Below are positions 7,418-63,122 of a DNA stretch of 64,000 bases, in pieces. The DNA is from Oscillospiraceae bacterium. GTDB lineage: Bacteria > Bacillota > Clostridia > Oscillospirales > CAG-272. The translations under genes were made by a program, and so were the position numbers. Below the pieces are notes generated by a model. The model made no database searches and had not been told where the DNA came from. It worked only from the letters and a program-made list of their open reading frames with translations. Each line of letters starts with the position of its first letter. Positions within the stretch are counted from its first letter, which is position 1. The stretch is from assembly GCA_015065385.1 (NCBI GenBank), contig SVQK01000056.1:270983-334982 (forward strand). Direction: 5' to 3'.

Positions 7418-7439
7418 AAGTTAAAGCGAGGCATTTTTG

Positions 7440-10400: not shown

Positions 10401-10925
10401 AGCATAAATGACGCATTGAGAAACGGAACCGGTAAACGAGCTGCAGACATAAACAACATGACAACGGCTATCGATCAGTGCGAAGCGCCCACCGATATAT
10501 GGCTTCAGAGAGGATGTTCGACATACGCATTGAGTAAGCTGTTCAACACCGATACGATGACCCTTGAAAAAGCGCGTTCAAAAGGATCCCAAGCTATTCT
10601 TGACCTTTTGTCCACCTCGGCAAACTACGGTCAGGATAAGGGTTTCATGTCATGCGGGTCTTCGAAAGGGAAGGGCTTTTCCTCTAACGATGTGATTTTG
10701 AACGTGTACTGTCCGAAAGGCACGAAGATGATGTATGCGGAACCGTTCTCCCACTATGGCGCGACAAGTGCCGGAGCTACGTGGAACGGCTCGTCTGGTA
10801 CAACTCATGTTTCAGGCGAACACGAAACAATCCTGCAAAGGGGGACAATGCTCCGTCCCACAAAGGTCACGGTGTCTAACGGTAAGATATACGTGGATGT
10901 AGACGTAATCGGTCAAAACTACTAA
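7440..10925 (+). CDS. Effector-family paralog 2: shared N-terminal module, about 7 repeated modules, and a C-terminal ADP-ribosyltransferase toxin domain
   Basis: The N-terminus MNKTDAYRNRRYKRLLARMD...HWVTTHETKRHIHINENGVPDKGNPYIIAKMTG is about 150 aa and highly similar to paralog 3. S/T/A/P-rich linkers separate the repeats. The ART motifs are at the C-terminus. Confidence 0.8.
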   Translation: MNKTDAYRNRRYKRLLARMDEVDGHFDDEGHWVTTHETKRHIHINENGVPDKGNPYIIAKMTGTKPKLSGEYRKKSLQESFGKGNTGKAVHSLKSLPEGSTIKMANGTEYTKTGSGFVSSKSKTGGKQTPQALAKILDGHTKAGKNFEVNPSDIGGAVEAGKNTGAPKPGQGAESEAPSASTSESVPETASASSPEIDALNTVIDQWGAGNQVPAVTTLQALTGLEDGTKILVDGFTFEKQSEISALGAGKVTSFKNTDTGEVFSKGTFKAILKSYAEEGQHDIEVQAPGQSTPASAEAAPAPDEVAPVETASTSPEVTKFNDILSGWAGHYSDGTLTEDDIAAANALKDGTIISVNGKDTYKKVTEHSMYGDYPWFENLETGKWSNVPALKKIVGGDDVQAVQVKDPANDTTVSAPASEQEPTPTSSAEPSAEQPSSSSGGKTMKDLTESLKKYPPTMEGANKFWNEVNSTFDNAPDGTEITFPDEDDGKWIKETHGSLTQWVNLASGDTMDNSEMSAAFLDSDFGKDLDNISAGITYKEPTGAGTPGSSSSGSSGLASQDYSGQKEALSDLIKNVPDASIAAYETVLDEFPEGTIIKVGGKTYEKIPSGDWGDPDTGLPLGESWDVGYELKHYNPQHTLDISIPGENTAASSTGNANTPTTSSDPAQYSASLSGVKSAVDKLKQGKFVHPAEFKKACKSMKDGDGIVTNGKTYIKGTDSSGNPVFHPSDSPQHTYSSTGMVDIMAYQIGLQKAGLSNGVSFKSGSDQSSSGSTAGASPSTAAPTATPSVAAKDTQKSIKNAKTKAAVASALDALPVGTKIHMKNQGETVFTKTEHGFSKESKFWGGTIHTLTDDVVKYVHGKNKYAAPFAIEDTSGGTTDFSDGSSYKAPAHSSTASLQSQSSSSASSASSSASSPKPSAWNGLKAKVQHAAEAFTQARKNAAHWDKGGGMATDKLLRPVTGAVWKKLTEGQKKSLVAYTGSAYASINDALRNGTGKRAADINNMTTAIDQCEAPTDIWLQRGCSTYALSKLFNTDTMTLEKARSKGSQAILDLLSTSANYGQDKGFMSCGSSKGKGFSSNDVILNVYCPKGTKMMYAEPFSHYGATSAGATWNGSSGTTHVSGEHETILQRGTMLRPTKVTVSNGKIYVDVDVIGQNY
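10310..10922 (+). other. ADP-ribosyltransferase domain (R-S-ExE class, C3/VIP2/SpvB-like)
   Basis: YTGSAYASINDALRNG; catalytic Arg in DIWLQRG (Arg codon 10509-10511); STS-like FMSCGSS; ExE in GEHETILQRG (10818-10826). Confidence 0.8.
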
Positions 10926-11312: not shown

Positions 11313-12233
11313 ATGATAGGAGCCATCATCGGTGACATCGTCGGCTCGGTCTACGAGTTCGACAATCATCGATCAAAGATTTTTCCGCTTTTTGATTCTC
11401 GCTGTGCGCTGACAGACGACAGCATAATGACGCTGGCCATCGCAAGAGCGCTCACGATCTACGGGCAGCAGGGGACGTATGAAAACCTGCAATCTGAGAC
11501 GATCCGGCAGATGCAGAGGGTCGGTCGATGCTACCCCGATTGCGGTTGGGGCGGGCGTTTCGGAAGGTGGATCTTCTCAGACGATCCGAAGCCATACAAC
11601 AGCTTCGGGAATGGCGCGGCTATGCGGGTCAGCGCGATTGTCGCCGCGGCTCCAAACCTCGAAACGGCGAAGCTGTGGACGAAGCTGGTAACCGAGATTT
11701 CGCACAACCACCCGGAAGGGATCAAAGGCGCACTTGCGACGGTTGAGCTTGCGTGGATAGCAAAAGAGGCCAGAAAACGCACGAATCCAAAATGCAAAGA
11801 TCGCATTTTCAAAGCCGCTTTGAAATACTACCCGGAAAAAGACTTCGCCGGAGATTTCAACCTTGATGCGATCCGCCCCAAATACCGATTCAACGAAACC
11901 TGCCAAGAGACGGTTCCGCAAGCCATCGAAGCGTTCCTTGAATCGAGAGATTTTGAGGACGCTATTCGAAATGCGATCTCAATCGGCGGGGACAGCGACA
12001 CGTTAGCCGCAATTACAGGGACTATCGCCGAGGCCTTCTACGGGGTGAAGCAGGAGCATAAAGCAAAAGCGCTCAAATACTTCGACAGCCTCCAATACGG
12101 AATCTACAGTGAGTTTTCAGCTATGTACAACGATCTGCCCGTATTCGGAGAGCTGTCCGGAGAAATCGCATTCCGAACAACCGAAGACGGATCCATCGGC
12201 GGGATTTCTACGATGGGAGACGTCATTGGGTAA
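11313..12233 (+). CDS. ADP-ribosylglycohydrolase (DraG/ARH family)
   Basis: GAIIGDIVGSVYEF, TDDSIMTLAIARAL, GNGAAMRVSAI, HNHPEGIKGA and GGDSDTLAAITGTIAEAFYG are the hallmark di-metal ARH motifs. Confidence 0.9.
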   Translation: MIGAIIGDIVGSVYEFDNHRSKIFPLFDSRCALTDDSIMTLAIARALTIYGQQGTYENLQSETIRQMQRVGRCYPDCGWGGRFGRWIFSDDPKPYNSFGNGAAMRVSAIVAAAPNLETAKLWTKLVTEISHNHPEGIKGALATVELAWIAKEARKRTNPKCKDRIFKAALKYYPEKDFAGDFNLDAIRPKYRFNETCQETVPQAIEAFLESRDFEDAIRNAISIGGDSDTLAAITGTIAEAFYGVKQEHKAKALKYFDSLQYGIYSEFSAMYNDLPVFGELSGEIAFRTTEDGSIGGISTMGDVIG

Positions 12234-32569: not shown

Positions 32570-34903
32570 ATGGCAACGAAAGATTTTGGAGATCTCTCGG
32601 CATCGTGGAAGTCGATAGATGATTCGATTTGGCCTATCCTCTACTCCCCCTATAATGCGTATTCGGGTTACACCCGTGGGAGCACCGGAAATCTCAAACT
32701 TCGGGTAATCGGAAACACGCTGGAATATGAAGCCACCTTCAAAACGCTTAGCAGGTACAATTCAGGGCAGGGGACAACTGACTATACGCATTTCCTCAGA
32801 TCGCTCTATATGGTCTATCCGGGTGGCAATGTAACAATCAGCAACCCGGGTTCCCGGTATATTTTGCAATCGGATGACACCGAAACTGTAACCGGATCGG
32901 TTACAGTTTCCGGATATGGAAAGGTTACAGTTCGGCCAAATATGCTCTATGATGGTGTGTGGTCCGAGGAAAATCTTGCATACGAAGAGTATGAGGGATG
33001 GATTCCGAGACCCGCTCCGACCATCGGCATCACGTTCCCTGCTGGTAGAGTAGAGGCTGGAAGAACCGCTTCGCTGAATGTAACTGCCTCCAGCGACGTC
33101 ACATCCGGAACCGTCACGCGATACTACAGGGCATCCTCGAGCGATCCTTGGCAGATCAAAGATATCAAGAGCAATGTCAAAACCAATCAGACGGTAAGTG
33201 ACAGCATTCCATCGGATTGGGTTGGTTATCAGGTTAAATGGAGATACACGGCGAGCAACGGCACTGAAACGTACAAAGAAACCTCGGTGTACACCGTTGA
33301 AGTCTATGACGATTCAACCGCATCGATTTCCCTTCTGAGCAGTACCTTCTACGAAGGCGGAAAGGTTACCGTTCAGTGTTCAAATACCGGAACGGTAAAA
33401 TCCGGCGTTGTATCTCGATATTATCAGGCGAAGGGGAGTAATTCTTGGACGGTTACCCAAATTGCCATAAACGTGACTGCGCGGAGCACCAACATCGAGG
33501 ACACAATTCCTGAAAATACCGGTGGCGGTACTATCTACTGGAAGTACGAAGTCAATGACGGAAGAAAGTCCGCCGAAACTGCTCAAAAAGCCATCACTGC
33601 CAACTCGCCGCCTACGACTCCCCCTTCGCTGACGATCCCTTCTGCGATCACAGCGGGGCAGAATTTCACGGTTTCATGGGGAAGCTCTACGGACGTTGAT
33701 AATAACCTTTCTGGCTATGTTCTTCAGCGTTCCATCAACCAAGGGGCGTCTTGGGATACCATCTATCAAGGCCCGGCTACCTCTTTTACTGACAAGCTCT
33801 TATTGAATCAAGCTGCCACAGTTCGGTATCGTGTTAATGCCTACGACAGCTTCGGAGCAACGTCAGACTATATATATGCTCCCTCCTCCGGAGATCGCAC
33901 GGTAACGAACAACCATGCTCCGACAACCCCTGCGGCTCCAATAACCGTCACCCCCGCCACTTTGACGTCTGGCATTACAGCCATCATTTCTTGGGGCACG
34001 TCCACGGATGAAGATGGTGATAGCTTCAATTATGTGCTTGAGCGAGCCGTGGATGGTTCCAAATCTTTCACGAAGATCTACGAAGGCACGGCACAGCAGT
34101 TCACTGAAACGGTAGGAAATTGGGAGACGGTAACATACCGGGTAAAAGCGGTTGATTCAAAAAATGCTTCTTCTGCTTACCGCACCGCAGACGCTAAAGC
34201 TGTTTCCCAGAACGCCGTTCCGACCATCACCTGTGCCAATGAAGACGGCGCGGATTTGGGGACGAAGAGTGAGGTATTCAGCTTCACGTATTCCGTCAAT
34301 GACACAAACGCTTCCGACACTTTGACCGTCAAGGAGATGGTTGACGGAGTAGTGAAGAAGACGATCAATAACGCCGTCCGTAACCAGAACTATACGTTCA
34401 ACTTCAGAACCGGATCTGCCGCGTCCACAACCTACTGGAACAAAATCTTGAACGGATCTCACACGATTACGATTTCCGTCTCGGATGGAACCCGTACCGT
34501 TTCGAAATCGTTCACCTTCCTGAAGAGCGTCGGGGCTTGTCTGATTACGATGGCCGAGGCGATCACTGCCAACAAGAATATCGACAAGGCCGTGGTTTCG
34601 ATCTGCGGTAACATTCCTGCCGGAGGGCTGACTGCGGTTCAGGTCACAGCGGATGATGGAACGCATTGGGAGGACTGCATCCTTGCTTCCGGAACCGGCG
34701 TAACGGAATCCGGGATCGGCAACCGTAAGAAGATGGCGACCGGAGCATTGACCGAGGAGCTTCTTGGCGGGCATTATCTTTTCATCCATACGATGGCGAA
34801 CACGGGGAAGAAATTCAATTTCCGCGTTCAGGCTCAGAAGGTCGGGGAGAATGGGGGACATATTTCTTCCGTGCAGGGTACCTTCACTGAGGTGAACACA
34901 TAA
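32570..34903 (+). CDS. Tail fibre/appendage protein with fibronectin type III-like repeats
   Basis: 777 aa. Two clear FN3-like units: PPTTPPSLTIPSAITAGQNFTVSWGSSTDVDNNLSGYVLQRS... and APTTPAAPITVTPATLTSGITAIISWGTSTDEDGDSFNYVLERA.... Earlier there are Ig-like duplicated segments (VTRYYRASSSDPWQ / VSRYYQAKGSNSWT). Confidence 0.7.
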   Translation: MATKDFGDLSASWKSIDDSIWPILYSPYNAYSGYTRGSTGNLKLRVIGNTLEYEATFKTLSRYNSGQGTTDYTHFLRSLYMVYPGGNVTISNPGSRYILQSDDTETVTGSVTVSGYGKVTVRPNMLYDGVWSEENLAYEEYEGWIPRPAPTIGITFPAGRVEAGRTASLNVTASSDVTSGTVTRYYRASSSDPWQIKDIKSNVKTNQTVSDSIPSDWVGYQVKWRYTASNGTETYKETSVYTVEVYDDSTASISLLSSTFYEGGKVTVQCSNTGTVKSGVVSRYYQAKGSNSWTVTQIAINVTARSTNIEDTIPENTGGGTIYWKYEVNDGRKSAETAQKAITANSPPTTPPSLTIPSAITAGQNFTVSWGSSTDVDNNLSGYVLQRSINQGASWDTIYQGPATSFTDKLLLNQAATVRYRVNAYDSFGATSDYIYAPSSGDRTVTNNHAPTTPAAPITVTPATLTSGITAIISWGTSTDEDGDSFNYVLERAVDGSKSFTKIYEGTAQQFTETVGNWETVTYRVKAVDSKNASSAYRTADAKAVSQNAVPTITCANEDGADLGTKSEVFSFTYSVNDTNASDTLTVKEMVDGVVKKTINNAVRNQNYTFNFRTGSAASTTYWNKILNGSHTITISVSDGTRTVSKSFTFLKSVGACLITMAEAITANKNIDKAVVSICGNIPAGGLTAVQVTADDGTHWEDCILASGTGVTESGIGNRKKMATGALTEELLGGHYLFIHTMANTGKKFNFRVQAQKVGENGGHISSVQGTFTEVNT

Positions 34904-37900: not shown

Positions 37901-40899
37901 ACAACGAGGGCTCGCTGGTTTTTGACTACGGTCTCGAAGACACCGACCACCTCGCGGGCGGCGCGGATGTATTCAACGGCCAGAATTCTGTCCTCTGGTG
38001 CAACCTGAGAGACGCTTTCTCCCGCGAGATCGCGCAGATGTATCAGTCCCTCCGCTCGGCGGGCGTTCTGTCCTACGCGACAGTTTCTGCACGGTTTACC
38101 GATCACCAAGCCAAATGGCCGGAGGCGATCTTCAACGACGATGCGCAGTTCAAATACCTCGACCCGCTGGTGAATCCCGATCCCGGCAAGGAGCCTACGG
38201 CCGTCTACCTGCCCATGCTTCAGGGATCCAAGGCGGAGCAGCGGAAATGGTGGCTCTACAACCGGTTCCGCTACATGGATTCCAAGTGGAACGCCGGGGA
38301 CGCGCTGACGGACGTGATCCAGCTCAGAGGCTACGCCAAGGCGGATATCACGGTCACGCCCTACGCGGATATTTACCCGACCATCAAATACGGTTCCGTT
38401 CCTGTTCAGGCGAGAGGAAAGCATGGCGTTCCCCAGACGCTGGCCTGTCCCCTCGATAACGTGAACGACACCGAAATCTATATCTACTCCGCCTCCCAGC
38501 TTGCCTCAGTTGGAGATTTGTCCGGGTTGAAGGTCGGTTTCGCTGACTTCTCCAAAGCGACGAAGCTCCAGTCCATCAAGGTTGGCTCGGACGAGGCGGG
38601 ATACACAAACCAGAACCTTACGGGCCTGAGTGTGGGTACGAACCCGCTTCTCGGATCCGTGGATGCCCGGAACTGCACAGCCCTTGTCGGTACGGTGGAT
38701 CTGTCGGGTGCGGCGAACGTCGAAACCGTTCTTCTGGAAGGAACTGCCGTTACCGGTGTTGCCCTTCCGAACGGCGGCATTCTGAAAACGCTCCACCTGC
38801 CCGGTACGGTGACGAACCTGACCGTGCGGAACCAGCCGGGGATCACGAGCTTCGTCATGCCGGACTACGAGAATATCACGACCCTCCGCGTGGAGAACAG
38901 CCCCGGAATCCCGGTGGAAGACATTCTCGCCGAGATCCCGGAAAACAGCCGCGTCCGCATTCTCGGTTTTGTCTCCGAAATGACGACGGTCGAAGAGGTG
39001 GATGCGTTCTACGCGCGCCTCGACACCATGCGCGGCCTCGACGAATCGGGCGGAAACGTGGACACCGCGGTTGTGGCAGGGAAGATCACGGGGCTCGACA
39101 CGATCACGGGCGCATGGCTCGCAGACAAGCTCTCGAAATACCCGAACATCGAGATCGAATACCAGCACATCACCAGCAGTCTGCGGTACTACAACTACGA
39201 CGGTTCGACGCTGATCACCACCGAGACCATCACGGACGGCGGCGACGGAACATACTCCGGCACTCCGTCCAGAAGCTCGACGGCACAATACAGCTACACC
39301 TTCGTCGGCTGGAACCGGAACAAGAACGCGACCGCGAAGGACAGCAGCGCGACCAAGGCCGTGACCGCCGACCGGGACGTTTACGCGGCCTATACGGCCA
39401 CGGTGCGGACGTACACGATCACATGGAAGAACAGCAACGGAACCGTTCTCGAGACGGACAACAACGTGCCTTACGGATCCACGCCGAGATACAACGGATC
39501 GACGCCGCAGAATCCCGACAGCTCGGGCGGCGCGTTCCGCGGATGGACACCCACGGTCACGACCGTCACCGGGAACACGACGTACACGGCTTCCTATGTG
39601 CCGAAGTATGACGTGAAGTTCTACAACGGTTCGACCCTGCTCCAGACGGTTTCCGTTTTGGAAGGAGGAACGGCGGTATATACCGGAGAGACTCCGGTTG
39701 ACGCGGGCGGAGCCGAGTTCCTTGGATGGGCGGCTTCGGCCGGTCAGCACTCCGCGGACGCCAATATTCTGAAGAATATCACGGCGAACAAGAGCGTCTA
39801 TGCGGCGTTCAAGTCTCCGATTGAGGTTCCCACGGCGACGACTGCGGAGGGGGCTTACGGTGTGGAATGGAACTACGGGGCGACGGCAACCACCCTGACA
39901 AGAAAGGGGCTGGCAGCTTCGTTCGGCAATCCCGTTCCGGCCGATTCCCTCACCGGTTCCGGATCCTCTCCGTTCGATACGGTTGCGCCGTGGAAGGACA
40001 TGAAGCGGTACAACGTAATCGACGGGGCGGTCTCGTATTCGCAGGACGACGCCGGATACTCCGAAACGGACTACGATACCGTGGTCTACATCCCGGAGTT
40101 TTATTACACGGCCTACAAAGACACCGCCGATTCCAAGTGGCTGTGGGCGATCTCTCCGACGCCGCTTGAGGGTTTTGTGAAGCACCCCGGTTCCGGTCGG
40201 TACATCGGGCGGTTCCACACCTCCGGAAGCTCGTCCGGTGTATTCTCGAAATCGGGCGCTGCTCCGCTGGCGAACACCACCCGTGCGAACTTCCGGATGT
40301 ACTCCCACAACAAAGGCGAAAAGTGGCGTCAGCTCGACCTCGCGGCGTGGTCTGCGCTTCAGATGCTCTACCTTGTGGAATTTGCGAACTTCTATTCGCA
40401 GAGCACACTCGGGACGGGCTATGATACCGGATCGGTCGGCACGATGGGCGAGACCGGCGAGGCGGCTTACCATACGCTGAAACGCTCGAAGGCGCACAAT
40501 ATGTACCGCTGGATCGAAGATCCGTTCTCGAATGTTCTGGACTGGTGCGACGGCTTTGTCGCTTCATCCAGAGCTGCCTACACCAGCATCGACTACGGGA
40601 GCTACAAGGATACAACCACGGGCATGGATAAAACCGGCATCACGCTCCCGAGTTCGAACTATATTTCGGGATTCGGATACAGCGCGGAAGCGCCTTATGC
40701 GTTCATCCCTGATAAAGCGTCAGGAGCAGAAACAACCTACGTTACAGACCGCGTCTACTCGAACACCGGGACTTGCGTCCTGTACGTCGGCGGTAGCTGC
40801 AACGCGAACGCGGACTATGGGTTCTTCTGCTTCGGCGCCTACCTCTCGGCTTCGAACACCTACGCCAGCTTCGGCTCCCGCCTCCTTTATATCCCTTAA
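34915..40899 (+). CDS. Giant receptor-binding tail fibre (1994 aa): CotH-like, LRR, Listeria-Bacteroides-type repeats and a C-terminal C-type-lectin/FGE-like domain carrying the DGR VR
   Basis: CotH-like: FVLKADVASSESANNVELVKLF...GFPIVLFWRN...GKYNFNLPK...LFLMVDSRAKNLFI. LRR: LTGLSVGTNPLLGSVDARNCTALVGTVDLSGAANVETVLLEGTAVTGV.... Repeats: YSYTFVGWNRN...YTITWKNSNGTVL...YDVKFYNGSTLL...FLGWAAS. CLec-like end: NMYRWIEDPFSNVLDWCDGF...VLYVGGSCNANADYGFFCFGAYLSASNTYASFGSRLLYIP. Confidence 0.85.
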   Translation: MYFKKLKINGIEYEMETHIVGEEDPTSETEGNLGQFYYNSNTGIFWKCTYSEDGVYSWEEFSTTAFDEVTMDEETRLLHFLKNGEDVVDPVYIAGGGGGSGGGSGNNAVLTVTNMTGWLAHTISTGADCYLSIDWSSLENEMETGAGILTIRVNNVVKRTLDISQGTVRINLKDILATGSNKVKLTVTDVYENTKSITFTIKSVDLRLASSFSTVSEFTEGEAVVFTYTPYGSVSKTTHFEVDGADAGTQVVTASGRQQSYTLPAMAHGAHSLKVWFTAEIDGEEVSSNVLWFDMIVVGDSTAPIISTSFRTSEAVQYETLYIKYRVYTPNSLTSVVSLYSGNTKITDLTVDRTEQTWTYRCDGYGELNLSIRSGTAVVNFVIDVEQSDIDTEPEADSLALHLSSYGRSNNEEHPEVWKDEEHNISCQLTGFSYVANGWVADKDGNTVLRVSGNARVTIPYKPFERDFRTTGKTLEFEFATRDVLDYDAVLVSCMNGNRGFELTSQRATLKSERSEISTQYKEDEHVRISFVAEKRTESRLIYVYINGIMSGVVEYPEDDDFSQQSPVNITIGANTCTTDLYNIRVYDNNLTRFQIVSNWIADTQNITEMLARYEHNNVYDEYGNVVISKLPKDLPYMIIEAEELPQYKGDKKTVSVEYTDPVTPGRSFTATGCQANVQGTSSAPYARKNYDMQFKAGFVLADKSSAENYELAPGIIPFNRFVLKADVASSESANNVELVKLFCEADPYKRPEELSNAKVRKGIYGFPIVLFWRNPADGSEQFMGKYNFNLPKRAPGPYGYSGDMESWEFQNNTSNLMLFLSDYFSEAPQADPSTGEVKAAWRYDYEARFPSDEWVDYSKLQEFQSFVFSTYRAGATGNDLETPVTYQETHTVYDEVVDPETGAVDYVERLVTEDVTYTKDTAEYRLSRFHHEFGKYAEVDSFLFYYIFTELFLMVDSRAKNLFIGFSGGPTSGLTHLDRKAVAEPYDMDTAIGTNNEGSLVFDYGLEDTDHLAGGADVFNGQNSVLWCNLRDAFSREIAQMYQSLRSAGVLSYATVSARFTDHQAKWPEAIFNDDAQFKYLDPLVNPDPGKEPTAVYLPMLQGSKAEQRKWWLYNRFRYMDSKWNAGDALTDVIQLRGYAKADITVTPYADIYPTIKYGSVPVQARGKHGVPQTLACPLDNVNDTEIYIYSASQLASVGDLSGLKVGFADFSKATKLQSIKVGSDEAGYTNQNLTGLSVGTNPLLGSVDARNCTALVGTVDLSGAANVETVLLEGTAVTGVALPNGGILKTLHLPGTVTNLTVRNQPGITSFVMPDYENITTLRVENSPGIPVEDILAEIPENSRVRILGFVSEMTTVEEVDAFYARLDTMRGLDESGGNVDTAVVAGKITGLDTITGAWLADKLSKYPNIEIEYQHITSSLRYYNYDGSTLITTETITDGGDGTYSGTPSRSSTAQYSYTFVGWNRNKNATAKDSSATKAVTADRDVYAAYTATVRTYTITWKNSNGTVLETDNNVPYGSTPRYNGSTPQNPDSSGGAFRGWTPTVTTVTGNTTYTASYVPKYDVKFYNGSTLLQTVSVLEGGTAVYTGETPVDAGGAEFLGWAASAGQHSADANILKNITANKSVYAAFKSPIEVPTATTAEGAYGVEWNYGATATTLTRKGLAASFGNPVPADSLTGSGSSPFDTVAPWKDMKRYNVIDGAVSYSQDDAGYSETDYDTVVYIPEFYYTAYKDTADSKWLWAISPTPLEGFVKHPGSGRYIGRFHTSGSSSGVFSKSGAAPLANTTRANFRMYSHNKGEKWRQLDLAAWSALQMLYLVEFANFYSQSTLGTGYDTGSVGTMGETGEAAYHTLKRSKAHNMYRWIEDPFSNVLDWCDGFVASSRAAYTSIDYGSYKDTTTGMDKTGITLPSSNYISGFGYSAEAPYAFIPDKASGAETTYVTDRVYSNTGTCVLYVGGSCNANADYGFFCFGAYLSASNTYASFGSRLLYIP
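40750..40887 (+). repeat. DGR variable repeat (VR), last ~46 codons of the fibre gene
   Basis: 138 nt colinear with the TR. I count 15 mismatches by eye, 14 of them at positions where the TR has A. Confidence 0.9.
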
Positions 40900-40907
40900 G
40901 GGGGACC

Positions 40908-40925
40908 GGGGGTCGCAACCCCCGA
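40908..40925 (+). promoter_or_regulatory. GC hairpin just 3' of VR (candidate DGR target-recognition hairpin)
   Basis: CGGGGGT cgca ACCCCCG: 7-bp stem with a 4-nt loop, 21 nt after the VR end. Confidence 0.55.
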
Positions 40926-41061
40926 GAGCTTAAAGCTCAGGCAAAACAAACAGCAAAGCAAACACAACAAACGCAACGGAAGTCCATATCCGTCCGCGCA
41001 CAGCGGTCGGATATGGGATTTCCCGGGATTCCCTGCGCAGTGGAGCGGTGCTTGTATCCTT

Positions 41062-41199
41062 CGCGTCAACTCGAACACCGGGACCTGCGTCCTGTACGTC
41101 GGCGGTAACTACAACGCGAACGCGAACTATGGGTTCTTCTACTTCAACGCCAACAACTCGGCTTCGAACACCAACGCCAACATCGGCTCCCGCCACCTT
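41062..41199 (+). repeat. DGR template repeat (TR)
   Basis: Non-coding copy of the VR, rich in AAC triplets (translates as RVNSNTGTCVLYVGGNYNANANYGFFYFNANNSASNTNANIGSRHL). It lies 119 nt upstream of the RT gene. Confidence 0.9.
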
Positions 41200-41318
41200 G
41201 TTCATACGGTTTGTGATATGCGCGCAGGGCTTTCCGTACCACTTGGTAAAAATATCGCCGCAAGGAGAGTGTTTAGTAGGACTATCTCGAAAAACGCTCA
41301 GGCGAACAAGGAGAAAAG

Positions 41319-42398
41319 ATGCCAAAAAGAATTGGATTTCTCTACGACAAAATGTGCGACAAGGTTTTCATCCGAACCGCCATCCTCGAAGGCGCGGTCG
41401 GAAAACACAAGCGGGCCGACGTGAAAGCGGTTCTCGAAGATCTTGACGGCTATGTGAACAAGACATACGAAATGCTGGTGAACCGCGCTTATGTTCCGAC
41501 GCCGCCGAGATCGAAGCGGATCTACGACAAGACCTGTCAGAAAGAGCGGACGATCCAGATTGTCCCGTACTTCCCGGACGGAATCATGCACTGGCTCTGC
41601 GTCAAGGCGATGCGGGGCGTTCTGATGCGCGGGATGTACCGCTGGAGCTGCGCGTCCATACCGGGCCGCGGGAACAAATGCGCATGGAGCTATGTCAAGC
41701 GCGCTTTGAAGAAGGATCCGAAGGGGACGAAATACTGTCTGAAGATGGACATCAAGAGCTACTATCCATCGATCAGGCCGAAGCGTCTGATCTGGGCCCT
41801 GGCCCGCAAGATCAAGGACAAGCTGTTTCTGAAAACCGTTTACAGCATAGTGGCTTCGAATCCGGATCCCGGAATCGCGGTCGGTTTTTACATCAACCAA
41901 TGGCTCGCAAACTATTTTCTCGAACCGCTCGACCGGCTGATCTGCTCCCTTCCCGGTGTCAAACACTACGTGCGGAACATGGACGACATGGTAGTATTCG
42001 GGTCGAGCAAACGGGATCTGCACCGGGCGCGGGCGAAAATCTCCGAGTTCCTTTTGGATCGTCTTTCTCTGGTGCTGAAAGGGAACTGGCAGGTATTTCC
42101 CGTGGACGGGCGCGGCGTGGACTTCATCGGCTATCGGTTCTTCCACTCGCACACCGCTTTGAGGCGGAGGAATTTCCTGCGCTTCATCCGGCAGTGCCGC
42201 AGGGTGGCCGGGATGGCCGCGGACGGGATCGCCATTCCATTTCACGAGGCGTCAGGTCTTCTCTCCCGGGCCGGTTCGCTGAAACACTGCGACTGCGCGG
42301 GCGCCAAGCGGCGGTATCTGGACGAGGGAGTCAGCGTCGGGCGGCTGAAACGGGTCGTGAGAGAACATGATCTGCACCTCCGCCTGACGACCGCATAG
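41319..42398 (+). CDS. DGR reverse transcriptase
   Basis: 359 aa. RT motifs: KERTIQIVPYFPDG, YCLKMDIKSYYPSI, IAVGFYINQWLANYFL (near-match to the DGR-type [LIV]GxxxSQ), YVRNMDDMVVFG (YxDD box) and GVDFIGYRF. Confidence 0.9.
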   Translation: MPKRIGFLYDKMCDKVFIRTAILEGAVGKHKRADVKAVLEDLDGYVNKTYEMLVNRAYVPTPPRSKRIYDKTCQKERTIQIVPYFPDGIMHWLCVKAMRGVLMRGMYRWSCASIPGRGNKCAWSYVKRALKKDPKGTKYCLKMDIKSYYPSIRPKRLIWALARKIKDKLFLKTVYSIVASNPDPGIAVGFYINQWLANYFLEPLDRLICSLPGVKHYVRNMDDMVVFGSSKRDLHRARAKISEFLLDRLSLVLKGNWQVFPVDGRGVDFIGYRFFHSHTALRRRNFLRFIRQCRRVAGMAADGIAIPFHEASGLLSRAGSLKHCDCAGAKRRYLDEGVSVGRLKRVVREHDLHLRLTTA

Positions 42399-42670: not shown

Positions 42671-43086
42671 GCGAATGGGTAAAGTTTTTCCTCGGCGGGG
42701 GCGTCGCCCTGTCCATCGTCGAAGGCGTGAAAGCTCTGATCGGCTGGCTCATCAAGAGGAAAGCCGCGAAGGAAGACCGCGCGGAGGACAGGGCGGAGCG
42801 GAAGATGGAGGAGCGGATGGCGAAGATCGAGGGGCGCGTCGCCGATCTGGAAGGCCAGCAGGGCAAGATCGTCGACTCCCTCGAGCTGCAAAGGGAGACA
42901 AACATCTATGTTCTGTACGACCGGATCCGCTATCTCTCAAAGTGCTATATACAGGACGGGGAGATCAGCTTTGAGGACAGGGATTCGCTGAATCAGATGC
43001 ACACGGTTTATCACCGGAATGGAGGCAACGGGAACTTGGACAATGTGATGAAGCTGGTGAACGAACTGCCGCTGAAGAAAGGATAA
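42667..43086 (+). CDS. Membrane-anchored coiled-coil protein (lysis-associated candidate)
   Basis: N-terminal TM segment WVKFFLGGGVALSIVEGVKALIGWLI, then a charged coiled coil. It lies immediately upstream of the endolysin. Confidence 0.55.
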   Translation: MSEWVKFFLGGGVALSIVEGVKALIGWLIKRKAAKEDRAEDRAERKMEERMAKIEGRVADLEGQQGKIVDSLELQRETNIYVLYDRIRYLSKCYIQDGEISFEDRDSLNQMHTVYHRNGGNGNLDNVMKLVNELPLKKG

Positions 43087-43094
43087 GGTGGATC

Positions 43095-43841
43095 ATGGAA
43101 TACACAAACAGTCCGCTGGTGAGCTACATGCAGCTCAGCCCGAACCATTCCGGATTGAGAACCCACAGCATCGACCGCATCTCCCCGCATTGTGTGGTGG
43201 GCCAGTGTTCCGTAGAGACGTTGGGCAACATATTCGCGCCGGTCTCTCGACAGGCCAGCTCCAACTATGGAATCGGTGTGGATGGAAGGATCGCCATGTA
43301 CGTCGAAGAGCAGAACCGTTCGTGGTGTACATCCTCCAAAGACAACGACCAAAGGGCGGTCACGATAGAGTGCGCGTCCGATACCACCGATCCCTATGCG
43401 ATGAACGGTTCCGTTTACGCATCCCTTGTGAAGCTCTGCGCGGATATATGCCGCCGAAACGGGAAGAAGAAGCTGGTCTGGATCCCGGACAAGGACAAGG
43501 CTCTGGCGTACAATCCGAAGACTGACGAAATGCTCCTAACCGTCCACCGGTGGTTTGACAGTCGGAAGTCCTGCCCCGGAGACTGGCTGTATAACCGCCT
43601 CGGAAACCTCGCTGTGGAGGTTACAGGGCTTCTTGCCGACCCCGTTCCAGCCCAGCAGACCGGAACACCGGGAGATGGAAATACGCCCCATAAATGGGCT
43701 GACGAGGCTGTAAAATGGGCTGTGACGAAGGGGATCCTGAAAGGATCGTCCTCCGGCGCAAAGGACTACAGGCTGAACGATCCCGTAACCCGCGAAGAGG
43801 TTCTGACGTTCATCCATCGTGCAATGAAGGGAGGCGATTGA
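43095..43841 (+). CDS. Endolysin: N-acetylmuramoyl-L-alanine amidase (Amidase_2/PGRP type) with a C-terminal SLH domain
   Basis: Amidase_2-like: RISPHCVVGQ...NYGIGVDGRIAMYVEEQNRSWCTSS...AVTIECASD. SLH-like: HKWADEAVKWAVTKGILKGSSSGAKDYRLNDPVTREEVLTFIHRAM. Confidence 0.85.
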   Translation: MEYTNSPLVSYMQLSPNHSGLRTHSIDRISPHCVVGQCSVETLGNIFAPVSRQASSNYGIGVDGRIAMYVEEQNRSWCTSSKDNDQRAVTIECASDTTDPYAMNGSVYASLVKLCADICRRNGKKKLVWIPDKDKALAYNPKTDEMLLTVHRWFDSRKSCPGDWLYNRLGNLAVEVTGLLADPVPAQQTGTPGDGNTPHKWADEAVKWAVTKGILKGSSSGAKDYRLNDPVTREEVLTFIHRAMKGGD

Positions 43842-43843
43842 GG

Positions 43844-44182
43844 ATGGAGAAGAAGAAATCCAAATTCCGGATCTGGTTTGCCGAGAAGCGTAAGAAATGG
43901 AACGAAACCTATGAGAAGCGGCTTTGTACCCTGATTACATCCAACGCCATCGCGTGGGTGTGGTGCTCTTACGGACTTGCCTTGCTCAGAAGATATGAGA
44001 TTGCGCAGTCTTTGTCTCAGGAGGCTGTGCGAACGATCCTCGGGGTTGCGATAGCATATGCTGTGAAATCCCTCGGCGAGAACGTATCGAAGTACGGCTA
44101 CAAGGGAAAGCAGATTCCGGAGCCTCCCGCTGAAACCGAGGACGAATTTGCCAACGCCAGAGGCAATGATGATGAGCTGTAA
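43844..44182 (+). CDS. Putative holin (112 aa, two TM segments)
   Basis: ATG 43844 after GGAGG. TM candidates are LCTLITSNAIAWVWCSYGLALL and AVRTILGVAIAYAVKSL, with a charged C-terminus. It is adjacent to the endolysin. Confidence 0.6.
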   Translation: MEKKKSKFRIWFAEKRKKWNETYEKRLCTLITSNAIAWVWCSYGLALLRRYEIAQSLSQEAVRTILGVAIAYAVKSLGENVSKYGYKGKQIPEPPAETEDEFANARGNDDEL

Positions 44183-44211
44183 CCACGTCCTCGATCAACA
44201 GGAGGTGACGG

Positions 44212-44997
44212 ATGCTTCAGGATTTCATAATGATAACCCGGCATTTTCCGGGAAACGATGATCTGAAGATTTACCCAATTTCCGACGTCCATCTCGGCGC
44301 AGCGGAACACATGGAGTCCGCTTGGCGTGAGTTCCGAACGAAGGTGATGGGGGAAGAAAACTCGTATCTGGTGCTGGCGGGTGACTTGATAAACAATGCC
44401 ACCCGCTCAAGCGTCAGCAACATTTTTGATGAGACCATGCGCCCCAGCTCCCAGAAGAAACTCATGGCCGAAATGCTCATGCCCCTAAAGGATCGTATCC
44501 TTTGTGCAGTCCCCGGAAACCATGAGGGGAGATCCGGGAAAGATGCGGACGATGATCCGGTTTACGATATTTGCTCCAAGCTGGATATTGAAGACTTGTA
44601 CCGCGAGAATATCGCTTTTCTGAAAATCCAGATAGGGGATCCTGCGGCGAACGGGGCAAGAAATCCAACCTATGTGATAGCCGTGACCCACGGAGCGGGT
44701 GGAGGAATCCTTACCGGAGGAGTGGTAAACCGCGCGGAGAGATTCGGCTATGCGATTGACGGAGCCGACGCTTTGATCCTCGGACACTCCCATAAACCGT
44801 TTACAACCCAGCCCGCCAAGTTGAAGGTAAACCCCTACAACAATACGGTATCCGTAAAGCCGTTCAAGGTGATCTCGGCTACCTCGTGGCTGGAATACGG
44901 GGGCTATGCGGCGCGGAAGAATCTGCTCCCCTCATCCCATGCTCCACAGGTTTTGAAGCTCTGCGGCACTCAGAAAGAAATCAAAGTTGAAATGTAA
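44212..44997 (+). CDS. Calcineurin-like metallophosphoesterase
   Basis: Motifs ISDVHLG, LAGDLINN, PGNHE, VTHGAGGG and LGHSHKP. Confidence 0.8.
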   Translation: MLQDFIMITRHFPGNDDLKIYPISDVHLGAAEHMESAWREFRTKVMGEENSYLVLAGDLINNATRSSVSNIFDETMRPSSQKKLMAEMLMPLKDRILCAVPGNHEGRSGKDADDDPVYDICSKLDIEDLYRENIAFLKIQIGDPAANGARNPTYVIAVTHGAGGGILTGGVVNRAERFGYAIDGADALILGHSHKPFTTQPAKLKVNPYNNTVSVKPFKVISATSWLEYGGYAARKNLLPSSHAPQVLKLCGTQKEIKVEM

Positions 44998-44999
44998 AG

Positions 45000-45509
45000 A
45001 TGGAGGTTGAAATGGAGTTTACCTATCATGATGTTTTCGGCATCATTTCGGTGGTATGTTGGATCGCCCTGATGATTGCCATGTTCTACTATCAGGAGAA
45101 GGGCAACGTAATCAAGATGATTACGAAGTTCATAGCCAATGCCGAAGAAACCGGCCAGCCCGGTCCCGACAAGATGGTGATGGTTGTGGATTGGATGTAT
45201 TCCTATATTCCTGCCCCCTTCCGTTCCATTCTAAATAAGGAAAAGCTGAAAGTAATTGCTCAGGACGTGTTCGACTGGACGCGCCAGTACGCCCTTGACT
45301 ACCTCGAGGAGAAGGCCAAGAAGGAAGAAGAGAAGAAGCATCCCAAGGATCCGGTTTTGCCCGAAGAGGATTCAAAAGACGATGATGATTTCCTCGTCGA
45401 ATACGATATTGTCCCGGAAATCTGCGATGCCGGGGCCGGTGATGACAAGGATGAAGGATGCGCGGAGTGTGTTGACGATGCTTGTCCTGTCTTCCCTGAA
45501 AAGAAATAA
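45000..45509 (+). CDS. Single-pass membrane protein, LL-H-type holin-like, with an acidic tail
   Basis: N-terminal TM segment IISVVCWIALMIAMFYY, then AEETGQPGPDKMVMVVDWMYSYIP, as in LL-H family proteins from memory. The C-terminus is D/E-rich. Confidence 0.5.
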   Translation: MEVEMEFTYHDVFGIISVVCWIALMIAMFYYQEKGNVIKMITKFIANAEETGQPGPDKMVMVVDWMYSYIPAPFRSILNKEKLKVIAQDVFDWTRQYALDYLEEKAKKEEEKKHPKDPVLPEEDSKDDDDFLVEYDIVPEICDAGAGDDKDEGCAECVDDACPVFPEKK

Positions 45510-45599
45510 CTTTGACGTTTACGGGTGTTGACCTCCCGCCCGTTGCGTCCGTCGCGGAGGGAATCCCCTGTTCCCGGTGAAGCGGCGGTATATAGATTC

Positions 45600-45633
45600 A
45601 GCCCTGTGGTGTAAAAGCCACGGGGCTTTTTTT
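45600..45633 (+). terminator. Rho-independent terminator ending the late/lysis operon
   Basis: AGCCCTGTGG tgtaaaag CCACGGGGCT followed by TTTTTTT. Confidence 0.7.
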
Positions 45634-45941
45634 GTAACAAAACCGGCCCCGGAATCGTAACAAACGAAGTGCCACAAACGGAGAGTGAATCCTACTCAAC
45701 TGGTAGGTTTTAGCCTGTTTTTCCGGGAAATCGCCTTTGTTACACGATTGTTACGGAATGTGACGGAGAATGTTTCACCCGGAAAACCGTTACAGGAAGC
45801 CCTTAGTCCTTATAAATGTAACATTGTAACATTAAAATAAAGAAATAAATAGTATAAATAGCCATTTCTGGCCGGCATACCCCTATACCCCTATATAGGG
45901 AAATTTATAGGAAATTCTTGTTTGTTACGTTTCATGTTACA
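45633..45941. repeat. Array of 9 TGT(A/T)ACA-type sites plus a 12-bp palindrome in an AT-rich non-coding region
   Basis: Site starts: 45633, 45657, 45738, 45749, 45789, 45817, 45825, 45923, 45935. A variant TGTGACG is at 45759. The palindrome CCCTATATAGGG is at 45889-45900, preceded by the direct repeat ACCCCTAT ACCCCTAT. Confidence 0.7.
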
Positions 45942-46068
45942 AAGGTTGAGACCAACCGAAAACGCGCTGAACCGTTTCGGCAGGTCTTTGATGGCGAGTT
46001 AAAGAAGGATGGCTCGATATATGGGCTTATAGTTAAACAGCTTGCTCTAAAAAACTGCAAAAATGGGC

Positions 46069-46097
46069 TTGACTTTTGTACGATAATTGCTTATAAT
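46069..46097 (+). promoter_or_regulatory. Consensus sigma-70-type promoter
   Basis: TTGACT (46069-46074), 17 nt, TATAAT (46092-46097). Confidence 0.65.
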
Positions 46098-46103
46098 ACC
46101 CGA

Positions 46104-46334
46104 TGCAAAGGGAGGTGAAACGCTTTGAACGAACGGAGAAACCGTATGACGGGAATAAAAAGAAAAGCAATCGTCCAGCATCCCAAACCGTGACGGTTGC
46201 TTTTACCCGAAAACCCCGAAATGGTTTCTCCCGGAAACCGGGATTCCACTTAACTCGGAGGCCTTGCAGAATCTATTATACACTGTTTCCCCCTCCGTGT
46301 CAAGTGGAATCCACTAAAAAATTCGGAGGAAAAT
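46104..46334 (+). ncRNA. Structured ~230-nt 5' leader or small RNA candidate
   Basis: No convincing ORF. One hairpin is GCAATCGTC...GACGGTTGC followed by TTTT (about 46167-46205). A second, large hairpin pairs GGATTCCACTT/AAGTGGAATCC with an inner CGGAGG/CCTCCG pairing (46241-46312). Confidence 0.4.
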
Positions 46335-46484
46335 ATGGAAATCACAAAAGAAGAAGCCCTGCAGATGCTCAAAGCCGTCACGATCCTGCTTTTGGATTGT
46401 GTTGACCGGGGAACCCTGTCTCAGGAAACCTACGTTGATGTGCTCGAGCTTCTCCTGAAGCTCGAGTACGTTTTGGGCAACTGA
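46335..46484 (+). CDS. Small helical protein (49 aa)
   Basis: ATG 46335 lies 6 nt after GGAGG. Translation is MEITKEEALQMLKAVTILLLDCVDRGTLSQETYVDVLELLLKLEYVLGN. Its stop is 2 nt before the next start. Confidence 0.45.
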   Translation: MEITKEEALQMLKAVTILLLDCVDRGTLSQETYVDVLELLLKLEYVLGN

Positions 46485-46486
46485 TT

Positions 46487-46990
46487 ATGGGAGTCCCGAC
46501 GCGCATAGGACGTCAACCAGAAAGAGTCATCACGGTAGATGATTATCTGGCGGCGGCACGTATCGTAGCTCGGTGCCGTTCAGAACGGCTTCCGTATGTG
46601 CTGGAGTTGCTTTGCAGAACCGGGATCGACTTGATGAAGTTGGATTTTCCGGAGGTTCCGGATCCAGTCTTCGGTACAGATTTCCGAGTCCGGTTATCCG
46701 CGTGGCTTGATGAGCCTATTCCGGATAACTGGAAATCACTGTCGATTTCGGAACACCTTGACTGGTATGTAAAACCGCACAGGGCCGTTGCCCGAGACGT
46801 CGGTAAGCGGTGTGCGGTTTCACCGATCGAAGTGTGGCGTGAAATGCTTTTACAGAACGGCCCGCTTTCCCGGTCGACGTCTATACGCATCAACACCGAG
46901 ATTGGATTGATCCCGGGATGGACCTATAACCCAAAAGCGATGCGGTGCGGTCCTTACGGCGCACAACGAGGCTTCGTCAGAACGGAATAA
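46487..46990 (+). CDS. Hypothetical protein (167 aa)
   Basis: ORF coupled to the preceding small gene and followed by a terminator. No motif recognised with confidence. Confidence 0.6.
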   Translation: MGVPTRIGRQPERVITVDDYLAAARIVARCRSERLPYVLELLCRTGIDLMKLDFPEVPDPVFGTDFRVRLSAWLDEPIPDNWKSLSISEHLDWYVKPHRAVARDVGKRCAVSPIEVWREMLLQNGPLSRSTSIRINTEIGLIPGWTYNPKAMRCGPYGAQRGFVRTE

Positions 46991-49145: not shown

Positions 49146-49298
49146 GTGAGAAACCGGCAGAAGCAACGGGCGCTTCGGCGTTCCGGGAAGAAGCGGGATT
49201 CCCCGATAGATTTCCGGAACGCGGAGCATTACCCGGATCCTGTTCCGCACGACGCGGTTGACAGAATAATCAGAAAGGAGAAAAAGAAGGTCGTATGA
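49146..49298 (+). CDS. Small basic protein (50 aa) of a type common in Firmicutes mobile elements
   Basis: GTG 49146. Translation is VRNRQKQRALRRSGKKRDSPIDFRNAEHYPDPVPHDAVDRIIRKEKKKVV. Its stop overlaps the next ATG (ATGA). Confidence 0.4.
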   Translation: MRNRQKQRALRRSGKKRDSPIDFRNAEHYPDPVPHDAVDRIIRKEKKKVV

Positions 49299-50338
49299 TT
49301 GACTACGAAGGCAAGCGAAAAGCCGCGGCAGAGGCATTACAGCACAGGCTTGCCGATCTGATGGATGACGCGGGAATCAACTCTAAAGTGCTGGCAAATG
49401 CCATCGGTGTAACCTATTCGAGCATCAACAACATCAAATCGGGGAAGACGGAACCCGGTTTCACCCTTCTGGTGTTGCTGGCAGACTATTTTGCGGTCCC
49501 GCTGGATTATCTCACCGGGAGGTGCAGCTTGCAAACCGCTGAGGACGTGCTGAAGAACTATCCCGAACGGTTTCAGGTTTTACGCCGGGCAGCTTATGAA
49601 GAATATCTTGGATTACGCAAGTATATTCGGATTCCGCTCGGGTATGAAAGCCCGTGGCCCTACAATCTGGTAGAGAGCGTTCGGATGCACTACGCGGAGG
49701 AGGTTTTACGGGAAGATCAGCTGCGCGGGCTGGACAAGGCGATAGACTCCCTGTCAGAAAGGGAACGCGATTCGATCTTGTGCTATTACCGGGATGGTTT
49801 TACCTTACAGCAGATCGGGGACCGCTGGGGAGTTACCCCGCAACGGGTGAGACAGGTTTTGGAAAAGGCCGTCCGAAAGCTCCGTCACCCGGCCCGACAG
49901 AAACTGGTTCTTGAGGGATACGACATCGTGGAGGAGAAGGCCAAAATCGAAAAGCGAAAGGCTGAGTTAAAAGCAGAAGAGGATTCCTTGAACCAGTTAG
50001 CGGATGCGCTTATGGCCAAGCGTCTCAGGCTGTGCGGGCTTCACCACGATCTTGAAGCACTGATTAAGTGGGATTCTGAATTGCGCGATGTGCGGGGAGA
50101 GACCCCGACAATGGATGTGCCGATTGAAAATCTGGACTTGACCGTTCGAGCTTACCACGCCTTGCACCGTGCCGGGTTTCGCACCTTGGGACAGGTGATC
50201 GACGCTGAGGCCGCAGGGAACCTTAAAGGGATCCGTCTGCTCGGCCCCAAGAGCTATGATGAAGTGCTGGGGCGGTGCAAGTGGTTTCTTGAAAACACTC
50301 CGATCTATGAGAATAAAGGTAGGGGTGGCGAAAGATGA
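49295..50338 (+). CDS. Three-module transcription factor: XRE HTH + sigma-70 region 4 + RNAP alpha-CTD-like domain
   Basis: HTH: NSKVLANAIGVTYSSINNIKSGKTEP. Sigma r4: LSERERDSILCYYRDGFTLQQIGDRWGVTPQRVRQVLEKAVRKLRH. AlphaCTD-like: IENLDLTVRAYHALHRAGFRTLGQVID...LKGIRLLGPKSYDEVL. Confidence 0.75.
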   Translation: MIDYEGKRKAAAEALQHRLADLMDDAGINSKVLANAIGVTYSSINNIKSGKTEPGFTLLVLLADYFAVPLDYLTGRCSLQTAEDVLKNYPERFQVLRRAAYEEYLGLRKYIRIPLGYESPWPYNLVESVRMHYAEEVLREDQLRGLDKAIDSLSERERDSILCYYRDGFTLQQIGDRWGVTPQRVRQVLEKAVRKLRHPARQKLVLEGYDIVEEKAKIEKRKAELKAEEDSLNQLADALMAKRLRLCGLHHDLEALIKWDSELRDVRGETPTMDVPIENLDLTVRAYHALHRAGFRTLGQVIDAEAAGNLKGIRLLGPKSYDEVLGRCKWFLENTPIYENKGRGGER

Positions 50339-61770: not shown

Positions 61771-61861
61771 GTTCGGCTCCTTTTTACACAAAAGTTTACT
61801 TATAGTGTAACACATTCCGGCTGTTCTTACAAGAGGCAACTTGCACAATTTCTACCTGTAC

Positions 61862-62660: not shown

Positions 62661-63122
62661 ATGGAGAAAATAGCGAGTTTCAAAATCAACCACGACATGC
62701 TGACACGAGGGTTGTACATCTCCCGCGTTGACGGAGATGTCATTACCTACGACCTCCGGATGAAACTGCCCAACGGTGAAGACTACCTCGCTCCCGCTGT
62801 GGCACACACCCTTGAACACCTTCTTGCCACCTACCTGCGGAACTCGGAGATTGGAAACGAGGTGGTGTACGTCGGTCCGATGGGGTGCAGGACCGGGTTT
62901 TACATATTGTTACGGGACACCGTAAGCCCTGAAGCAGCTATCGTGGAAATCTACACGGCCCTGTGCGTCGCCGCGAATTACATGGGCGACATCCCCGGAG
63001 CGACGAGAGCCGAGTGCGGGAACTACAGGGATCACGACCTCGTGGGGGCGAGAATAGAGGCCCGTAAGATGCTCCCCATTCTGCGTATGTGGACAAAGGG
63101 TCAACTAAAGTACCCCGAATAA
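62661..63122 (+). CDS. luxS: S-ribosylhomocysteine lyase (autoinducer-2 synthase)
   Basis: SFKINHDML, the metal-binding HTLEHLLA, PMGCRTGFY and CGNYRDHDL are colinear with E. coli LuxS (HTLEHLFA, PMGCRTGFY, CGTYQMHSL). Confidence 0.9.
   Translation: MEKIASFKINHDMLTRGLYISRVDGDVITYDLRMKLPNGEDYLAPAVAHTLEHLLATYLRNSEIGNEVVYVGPMGCRTGFYILLRDTVSPEAAIVEIYTALCVAANYMGDIPGATRAECGNYRDHDLVGARIEARKMLPILRMWTKGQLKYPE

Follow-up and report, generated by a model that had tools for sequence, protein, structure and literature searches.

Why nine copies of a short motif should crowd into a gap between the late and the early genes of a phage is the question considered here. The stretch analysed (the window) comprises 64 kb, in which genes for the large terminase, portal, head and tail are followed by a diversity-generating retroelement (DGR), by lysis genes ending at 45509 and by an early region from 46335; the late/early gap of 825 bp holds a terminator, the repeat array (45633-45941) and an early promoter, in that order. 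The original prediction for this locus had listed an operator array, replication-origin iterons, a partition site and a pac site as candidate roles; the origin role is the one that has gained support, and nothing emerged for a partition or pac site. Judged from sequence comparisons, the array is probably a replication origin, or an origin-like cis element, of the type served by the Rep proteins of Staphylococcus aureus pathogenicity islands (SaPIs) and by VapE. Origins of this kind are already known from SaPIs. The unusual features, which are also the new ones, are the detachment of the array from a helicase gene, its position at a junction of late and early modules and its pairing with a stand-alone homologue of the origin-binding domain.

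Oriented repeats around an AT-rich centre

The array comprises nine GTWAC cores in 309 bp, and all nine heptamers of the original prediction are present, as are the spacings of 8, 11 and 12 bp that it gave for three pairs. Iteron 1 is TGTAACA on the plus strand (45633-45639) and iteron 2 is CGTAACA on the same strand (45656-45662). Iterons 3, 4 and 5 lie on the minus strand: TGTTACA at 45738-45744 (TGTAACA on the minus strand), TGTTACG at 45749-45755 (CGTAACA) and CGTTACA at 45788-45794 (TGTAACG), the starts of the first two being 11 bp apart. Iterons 6 and 7, again on the plus strand, form the tandem TGTAACATTGTAACA (45817-45831) with a period of 8 bp, and mark the conserved left border of an AT-rich centre, the right border of which is the inverted, minus-strand pair of iterons 8 and 9 (45923-45941; TGTTACG and TGTTACA as read on the plus strand), 12 bp apart. 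Exact matches to TGTWACA start at 45633, 45738, 45817, 45825 and 45935, and the sites at 45656, 45749, 45788 and 45923 are one-off matches. The sites had been called near-palindromic; aligned on GTAAC, they yield instead the asymmetric consensus YGTAACA(A/T)(A/T), in the order + + - - - + + - -, and are directional repeats, not palindromes. Palindromic operators for a ribbon-helix-helix (RHH) or MetJ-like protein were rejected on this ground, and also because the sites track a winged-helix helicase domain, as described below.

That these sites are a chance cluster in AT-rich spacer DNA, as the 59% AT of the array region might suggest, has a negligible probability. The 64 kb contain 86 GTWAC cores, so that the array, with nine, compares with a Poisson expectation (lambda) of 0.37 (P 2.8e-10), in agreement with the rough estimate, made beforehand, that such a motif should occur well under once in a region of this size. 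Nine cores were reached in none of 5000 dinucleotide shuffles of local AT-rich DNA (mean 1.27, maximum 8), and of the 20 copies of the oriented hexamer GTAACA/TGTTAC in the window, eight are in the array (P 3e-15). A similar density elsewhere in the phage DNA, named in advance as grounds for abandoning the finding, was looked for and did not appear: the runner-up 320-bp stretch of the window, within a tail gene, has five cores against nine. The statistics, together with a layout common to other phages and a profile match (both described below), refute the chance explanation. A cluster of five GTWAC cores at 32823-32930 was considered as a second array and rejected, as it lies inside a 777-aa tail gene and has no AT-rich centre; it is probably coding-driven. 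Outside the array, exact TGTWACA occurs in the window at 32830 and 61806 only, which is about the number expected by chance, and the copy at 61806, to which attention had been drawn for its position near an RHH gene, carries no weight.

The origins of SaPIs, from which our definition of the relevant features (iterons and an AT-rich centre) was taken, have 6-12 iterons, which directly follow rep and surround an AT-rich centre, with at least two per side that point in opposite directions (PMC9371898). The nine oriented YGTAACA sites agree with the 6-12 short iterons of 5-7 bp per origin found in SaPIs and other phage-inducible chromosomal islands (PICIs), such as those served by SaPI1 Rep1 and SaPI5 PriRep5, and the arrangement of at least two opposed iterons on each side of an AT-rich centre is also the same, the plus-strand pair (45817, 45825) and the minus-strand pair (45923, 45935) flanking 45831-45870. 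This centre, a putative DNA-unwinding element, shares position 45831 with the end of iteron 7. The 30-mer that starts at 45831 is 93% AT, the maximum of the window, and the 40-mer that starts at 45819 is the least stable of the 64 kb (-39.8 kcal/mol against a mean of -57.7, standard deviation 3.9).

Within the spacer, the tandem ACCCCTAT ACCCCTAT (45879-45894) overlaps the palindrome CCCTATATAGGG (45889-45900), the two together covering 45879-45900; both the palindrome and the direct repeat had been noted in the original prediction and are present. Comparable doublets, for example ACCCGCCTGACCCGCCT, are found in related arrays. As a separate observation, many arrays have in common, besides the iterons, a spacer core that runs TTCTAATAGAC, then GGGAGTATTATACCCGCCTGACCCGCCT, then TATACGCGCG (examples are L063 10406-10660, L067 6855-7010, L079 and L027), and the window doublet ACCCCTATACCCCTAT occupies the place equivalent to this core.

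Layout and repeat sequence in other phages

An exact-word scan of viral contigs for the 15-mer TGTAACATTGTAACA gave at least 119 loci. Among the matches listed, 81 loci had at least eight GTWAC cores in 400 bp, on contigs of 27-66% GC, and non-redundant arrays anchored on the tandem pair revealed one common layout in at least 77 unrelated viral contigs. In the average of this class (again among the matches listed), iterons of both orientations lie at -160 to -40 from the tandem pair at 0, a region of 72-79% AT follows at +10 to +40, and mostly inverted iterons lie at +50 to +130. The window sites, at -184, -161, -79, -68, -29, 0, +8, +106 and +118, fit this layout.

At least 32 array-bearing loci have, next to the array, a gene for a VapE-type C-terminal domain. 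In most of these the gene is an approximately 800-aa VapE-like one (PF05272), whose stop codon lies within about 12 bp of the array, and the genes next after the array are a VRR-NUC-like gene, an SNF2 helicase and an ArpU-like regulator. A profile built from 24 helicase-adjacent arrays only had a single strong match in the window, at 45738-45919 (E 1.7e-10). A second, weak match of the same profile fell at the 3' end of gene 46487-46990, which can be understood because the last codons of the helicase precede the array in the canonical arrangement. The position of the array in the window is not peculiar to this phage, in that about ten phages of the same gene order carry an array at the same late/early junction, in the order DGR reverse transcriptase, endolysin, small membrane protein, terminator, array and early promoters.

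The window array thus shares with the VapE origins of other phages (phiCT453A, Pd_22F and many contigs of IMG/VR) the tandem pattern XXXXXattXXXXXat, the AT-rich DNA, the inverted copy and the protein domain family, and its repeat, GTAACA, is the commonest iteron among phages with similar SNF2 genes. It differs from them in position: in those phages no more than about 12 bp separate the stop codon of the helicase gene from the start of the array, and VRR-NUC and SNF2 genes come next, whereas the window array follows the terminator of the lysis module and precedes the early genes. A SaPI5-like origin has also been predicted, by analogy, in Enterococcus phage Abitsa (PMC13517437), and a literature search found no paper linking GTAACA iterons to a phage origin.

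Phages chosen by protein rather than by repeat have the same architecture with other iterons. Downstream of the VapE gene, Clostridium phage phiCT453A carries the repeats GGGTAC/GGGAAC and Paenibacillus phage Pd_22F the repeats GTCAAC, including tGTCAACattGTCAACat. We examined 450 bp past the stop codon in 78 loci picked via conserved helicase motifs, and in most of them found 6-16 copies of some hexamer, the hexamers including GGCAAC, GGAACA, GGAAAC, GGACAC, GTAAAC, GTGACA, GGATAC and GTAGAC. In a second set of 78 loci, picked as those whose C-terminal domain most resembles that of the window, 28 had at least eight GTWAC cores and a further 17 had GTAAAC/TGTAAA, against one and six, respectively, of the 78 helicase-picked loci (Fisher 3.5e-9). 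The window domain also scores higher against GTAAC-adjacent domains than against others (Mann-Whitney 1e-6), and has in common with the former two residues that tell the groups apart, N136 (predicted recognition helix) and G162 (wing). The sequence of the iterons therefore co-varies with the C-terminal domain across phages, and that of the window array fits the specificity group of the window domain (GTAAC or GTAAAC neighbours; N136, G162), this fit being correlative and the iteron-domain correlations being partly confounded by phylogeny. The repertoire of iterons (GTAACA, GTAAAC, GTCAAC, GGCAAC, GGAACA, GGACAC and others) can be regarded as a 'code' that tracks the winged-helix C-terminal domain of the helicase, in a single origin architecture common to hundreds of phage contigs of 27-66% GC. 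As a natural data set, it could serve to learn rules of protein-DNA recognition and to predict where the origins of phages and satellites are incompatible.

Candidate binding protein, helicase and second arrays

The gene at 46487-46990 (plus strand), which starts 546 bp downstream of the array, encodes a 167-aa stand-alone homologue of the VapE/SaPI-Rep C-terminal winged-helix domain, recognized by blastp, profile and predicted fold, and a Rep-type C-terminal domain is thus encoded on the same element as the array. Residues 70-167 align with the last 100 or so residues of every array-adjacent VapE of about 800 aa (blastp 4e-11 to 1e-4; profile 1e-31). An exhaustive HMMER search gave 100 relatives, which comprised stand-alone proteins of 100-300 aa, fusions to Bro-N or ORF6N and VapE proteins of about 800 aa; a search for relatives of the 167-aa protein by word patterns found none, and a homologous-protein search returned only one 96%-identical copy. 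A profile of 54 relatives matched one structure in the PDB, 7PDS (E 3e-17; chain residues 323-374 and 403-466), which is SaPI1 PriRep1 with DNA (PMC9371898). The AlphaFold (AF2) model has helices followed by a beta-hairpin wing, with a predicted local distance difference test (pLDDT) score of 89.9; this model was taken from the alignment, the single-sequence model reaching a pLDDT of only 37.6. A Foldseek search with the model placed six 7PDS chains in the top six positions, at probability 1.0, followed by weak winged-helix matches. In SaPIs, the C-terminal domain of Rep contains a winged helix that recognizes penta- or hexanucleotide iterons, and PriRep5 without its C-terminal domain lost ori binding (PMC9371898). 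The original prediction had suggested the RHH protein, an XRE-sigma fusion and the small terminase as binders and had not flagged the 167-aa product; we found no support for those three, and on sequence and model the 167-aa product is the likely binder of the iterons. It should recognize GTAAC, all the iteron-domain correlations being in agreement with this.

Our working hypothesis is that the YGTAACA repeats serve as iterons for the winged-helix C-terminal domain of the self-loading superfamily 3 (SF3) helicase class. The most meltable AT-rich stretch (45831-45870) has seven copies on its left, the last two in tandem, and two inverted copies on its right. Protein molecules sitting on the two flanks in opposed orientation would open this stretch, and replication would start there. 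The binder would be either the 167-aa product of 46487-46990 or a full-length VapE helicase from a gene beyond the window; the two may also act together. In having a winged-helix C-terminal domain as its predicted binder, related to that of SaPI1 PriRep1 by profile and predicted fold, the window array again resembles SaPI/PICI origins. It differs from them in the sequence of the iterons, in lying at a late/early junction and not right after rep, in that the protein in view is without the helicase and primase parts, and in that the host element is a large tailed phage and not a satellite. The phage, which is uncultured, exceeds 80 kb and probably comes from gut Firmicutes, and hardly any of its early genes is annotated; the finding gives it a likely origin and a named candidate binder, so that its replication can be tested directly.

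The array could instead be a set of operators through which the stand-alone winged-helix protein regulates the early promoter or the late/early boundary. A strong early promoter drives the domain gene, and the array occupies the DNA 130-460 bp upstream of this promoter, so that autoregulation is conceivable; in another phage the gene pair to which the domain gene belongs forms a cassette that also has an RHH gene and a promoter of its own, and fusions of the domain to Bro-N, which is anti-repressor-like, exist. We nevertheless consider an operator role distinctly unlikely, as no iteron overlaps the -35 or -10 element (the closest is 128 bp off), the same architecture with its AT-rich centre is found directly after helicase genes, where there is no promoter to regulate, and the homologous domain has a demonstrated role in origin binding (PMC9371898).

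A pac site or a partition site, with the small terminase or a ParB-like protein as its binder, is highly improbable. The extra arrays that other phages carry between terminase and portal genes might be cited for it, as might a ParB_N-methylase encoded upstream of the terminase; yet the small terminase gene lies some 53 kb from the array, upstream of the window start, no ParA/ParB pair is encoded nearby, and the repeats track the C-terminal domain of the helicase and not terminase or ParB. Other kinds of site were also considered and rejected. For an array of attP arm sites, no integrase gene is adjacent and the array is at neither end of the phage-like region of the contig. By inspection against the consensus sequences, there was no match to parS, DnaA-box or LexA/Cheo-box sites: the array has neither a DnaA box nor a Cheo box, and only a half-parS-like TGTTTCAC at 45771.

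Several observations weigh against the array being the origin, or the only origin, of this phage. A VapE profile run over the window detected the C-terminal domain only, with no full-length VapE or other SF3 helicase, so that the self-loading full-length helicase of this origin class is absent from the window; nor was a VapE gene seen in the 80.7 kb or so of the 82.5-kb source contig (ENA ERZ27247006 k141_29844) that lie to the right of its leftmost 1.8 kb. Origins of this class typically, though not as a mechanistic requirement, come directly after the rep ORF, whereas the window array follows no rep gene and is upstream of a gene for the domain only. The domain gene and the 49-aa ORF that precedes it also occur together as a moron-like cassette that separates a terminase gene from a portal gene and has no array in its neighbourhood, and because of this the domain-only protein could be an accessory factor rather than an initiator. 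In a close relative of the window phage (L002), promoters take the place of the array at the same junction. There is no inflection of GC skew at the array, a weak test in a phage with all genes on one strand. Finally, because some phages carry two arrays, that of the window need not be the active origin.

In each of these phages one array separates the terminase and portal genes; the other follows VapE in L066/L063 and L118/L077, and in L027/L067 it occupies the late/early junction. For two clusters in one genome phage P4 is a known case: the C-terminal domain of its alpha primase-helicase binds short oriented repeats at ori and crr, and both clusters are required in cis. The window array resembles those of P4 in having short oriented repeats that would serve the C-terminal DNA-binding domain of a primase-helicase, and relatives of the window phage have two clusters; the P4 octamer, TGTTCACC, is however unlike the window iteron, and no second GTAACA array was seen in the same 80.7 kb or so of this phage. 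The array might be a secondary, non-initiating site, such as a crr-like enhancer or a site of iteron titration or handcuffing, that binds the same domain as a true origin beside a VapE gene outside the window and tunes or times replication. The existence of several phages with two GTAACA arrays is in keeping with this, and so is the left end of the contig, which carries VRR-NUC, SNF2 and ArpU-like genes, the usual followers of VapE and its array. GTWAC arrays of at least eight cores are present in the 1.8 kb upstream of SNF2 in 15 of the 56 phages whose SNF2 genes are most similar, and because of these it is plausible, by comparison of sequences, that a second array and a helicase gene lie just beyond the part of the contig that was read. 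One locus (L131) extends the left end by 1.26 kb and ends inside the VRR-NUC-like gene; exact-word scans of metagenome and genome collections for DNA beyond the left end gave no match. All the same, a secondary site is unlikely, since the window array has the complete layout of an origin, with an unwinding element and inverted flanking pairs, and is not a mere block of repeats, and since the part of the contig that was read has no other array.

We favour, then, an origin or origin-like element of the SaPI-Rep/VapE type, and it is tempting to speculate on why its binding domain should be encoded apart from a helicase. The 49-aa ORF that precedes the domain gene (46335-46484, plus strand) is homologous to a 50-aa ORF in L294 (E 2e-9), which precedes a gene for Bro-N fused to the Rep C-terminal domain, a gene that in L294 has been inserted between those for terminase and portal. 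The ORF and the domain gene are thus a mobile pair. The domain module occurs alone, fused to Bro-N or ORF6N, beside a primase gene (the stand-alone P0003) and in the terminase/portal cassette, and in further cases (P0006 with GTAAC, P0007 with GTCTACA) a stand-alone domain gene is the immediate neighbour of an array. An array detached from any helicase gene, and a gene for the domain alone, suggest that recognition of an origin can be uncoupled from the helicase and can be mobile. It is possible, if on balance doubtful, that the pair of 49-aa ORF and stand-alone Rep C-terminal domain, together with the extra arrays at module junctions, makes up an undescribed layer of origin control or of competition between phages. 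The protein of such a mobile, helicase-free module might license, block or hijack Rep-type origins of the same iteron code.

There is a parallel with Odn of phage ICP1, an origin-directed nuclease built from the origin-binding domain of a satellite (PMC8263062). In both cases the origin-binding domain of an initiator is found apart from the initiator, in the window family as stand-alone, Bro-N-fused and ORF6N-fused forms. Odn differs in that its DNA-binding domain is of the RepA N-terminal type, in its nuclease and in its target, the origin of a competitor; the window protein has no nuclease domain, and the iterons are in the phage's own genome. If the proposal is true, the pair would be a mobile origin-binding module analogous in logic to Odn, but without a nuclease.

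Surroundings of the array and other features

The late/early setting given for the array in the original prediction was borne out by the signals on either side. The array's upstream neighbours are a 169-aa late gene and its terminator, a Rho-independent terminator that closes the late (lysis) operon (45600-45632, plus strand; an 11-bp stem with seven GC pairs, and a T-run). The T-run directly abuts iteron 1 (45633). On the other side is the early promoter, TTGACT-17-TATAAT (46069-46097, plus strand), which agrees with the consensus at 11 of 12 positions, and comparable promoters lie 3' of the array in L113, L003, L027 and L076. The region of the array had been described as free of ORFs, and has no supported ORF; mechanical ORFs of 51, 52 and 66 aa do exist there, without support. 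An Rfam scan of 45400-46600 gave no meaningful match.

Relatives of the window phage were also sought through flanking proteins. The 169-aa late protein led to L002, which is 83.6% identical to the window over 43054-45643, a segment that includes the lysis genes and the terminator. Similarity is lost at 45643 and L002 has promoters there instead; because of this the array belongs to a mosaic module on the early side. A 352-aa flanking protein led to one locus (L001), of different context, and a DNA similarity search against known phages gave weak matches only, including one to Faecalibacterium phage Roos.

On the minus strand, a perfect sigma-70 promoter, TTGACA-17-TATAAT, runs from 46303 to 46275 and opposes the early promoter. 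About 100 nt past it is a hairpin (46204-46163) with a T-run, the whole unit occupying 46155-46303, and transcription from this promoter would yield a small antisense RNA of some 110 nt, directed at the leader of the early operon. A 21-nt inverted repeat (46241-46261 and 46292-46312) overlaps the minus-strand promoter.

Elsewhere in the window, 40750-42398 is a complete DGR, with the variable repeat (40750-40887) at the 3' end of a 1994-aa tail gene, the template repeat at 41062-41199 and the reverse transcriptase gene at 41319-42398; nearly all mismatches between the repeats are at template adenines. The portal protein (1532-4387) is fused to a NUDIX hydrolase domain, and a 1162-aa protein (7437-10925) has a C-terminal ADP-ribosyltransferase toxin domain, with an ADP-ribosylglycohydrolase gene adjacent (11313-12233). 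In the early region, 49295-50338 encodes an unusual regulator fusion of 347 aa, in which an XRE-type helix-turn-helix is joined to sigma-70 region 4 and to the C-terminal domain of the RNA polymerase alpha subunit, and at 62661-63122 there is a phage-borne gene whose product has a LuxS (autoinducer-2 synthase) Pfam domain. About 5.4-7.9 kb past the right end of the window, L122 15699-18276 carries phosphofructokinase and spoIIAA, spoIIAB and sigma-F-like genes, which are either host DNA, in which case the phage would be an integrated prophage, or sporulation-sigma genes carried by the phage.

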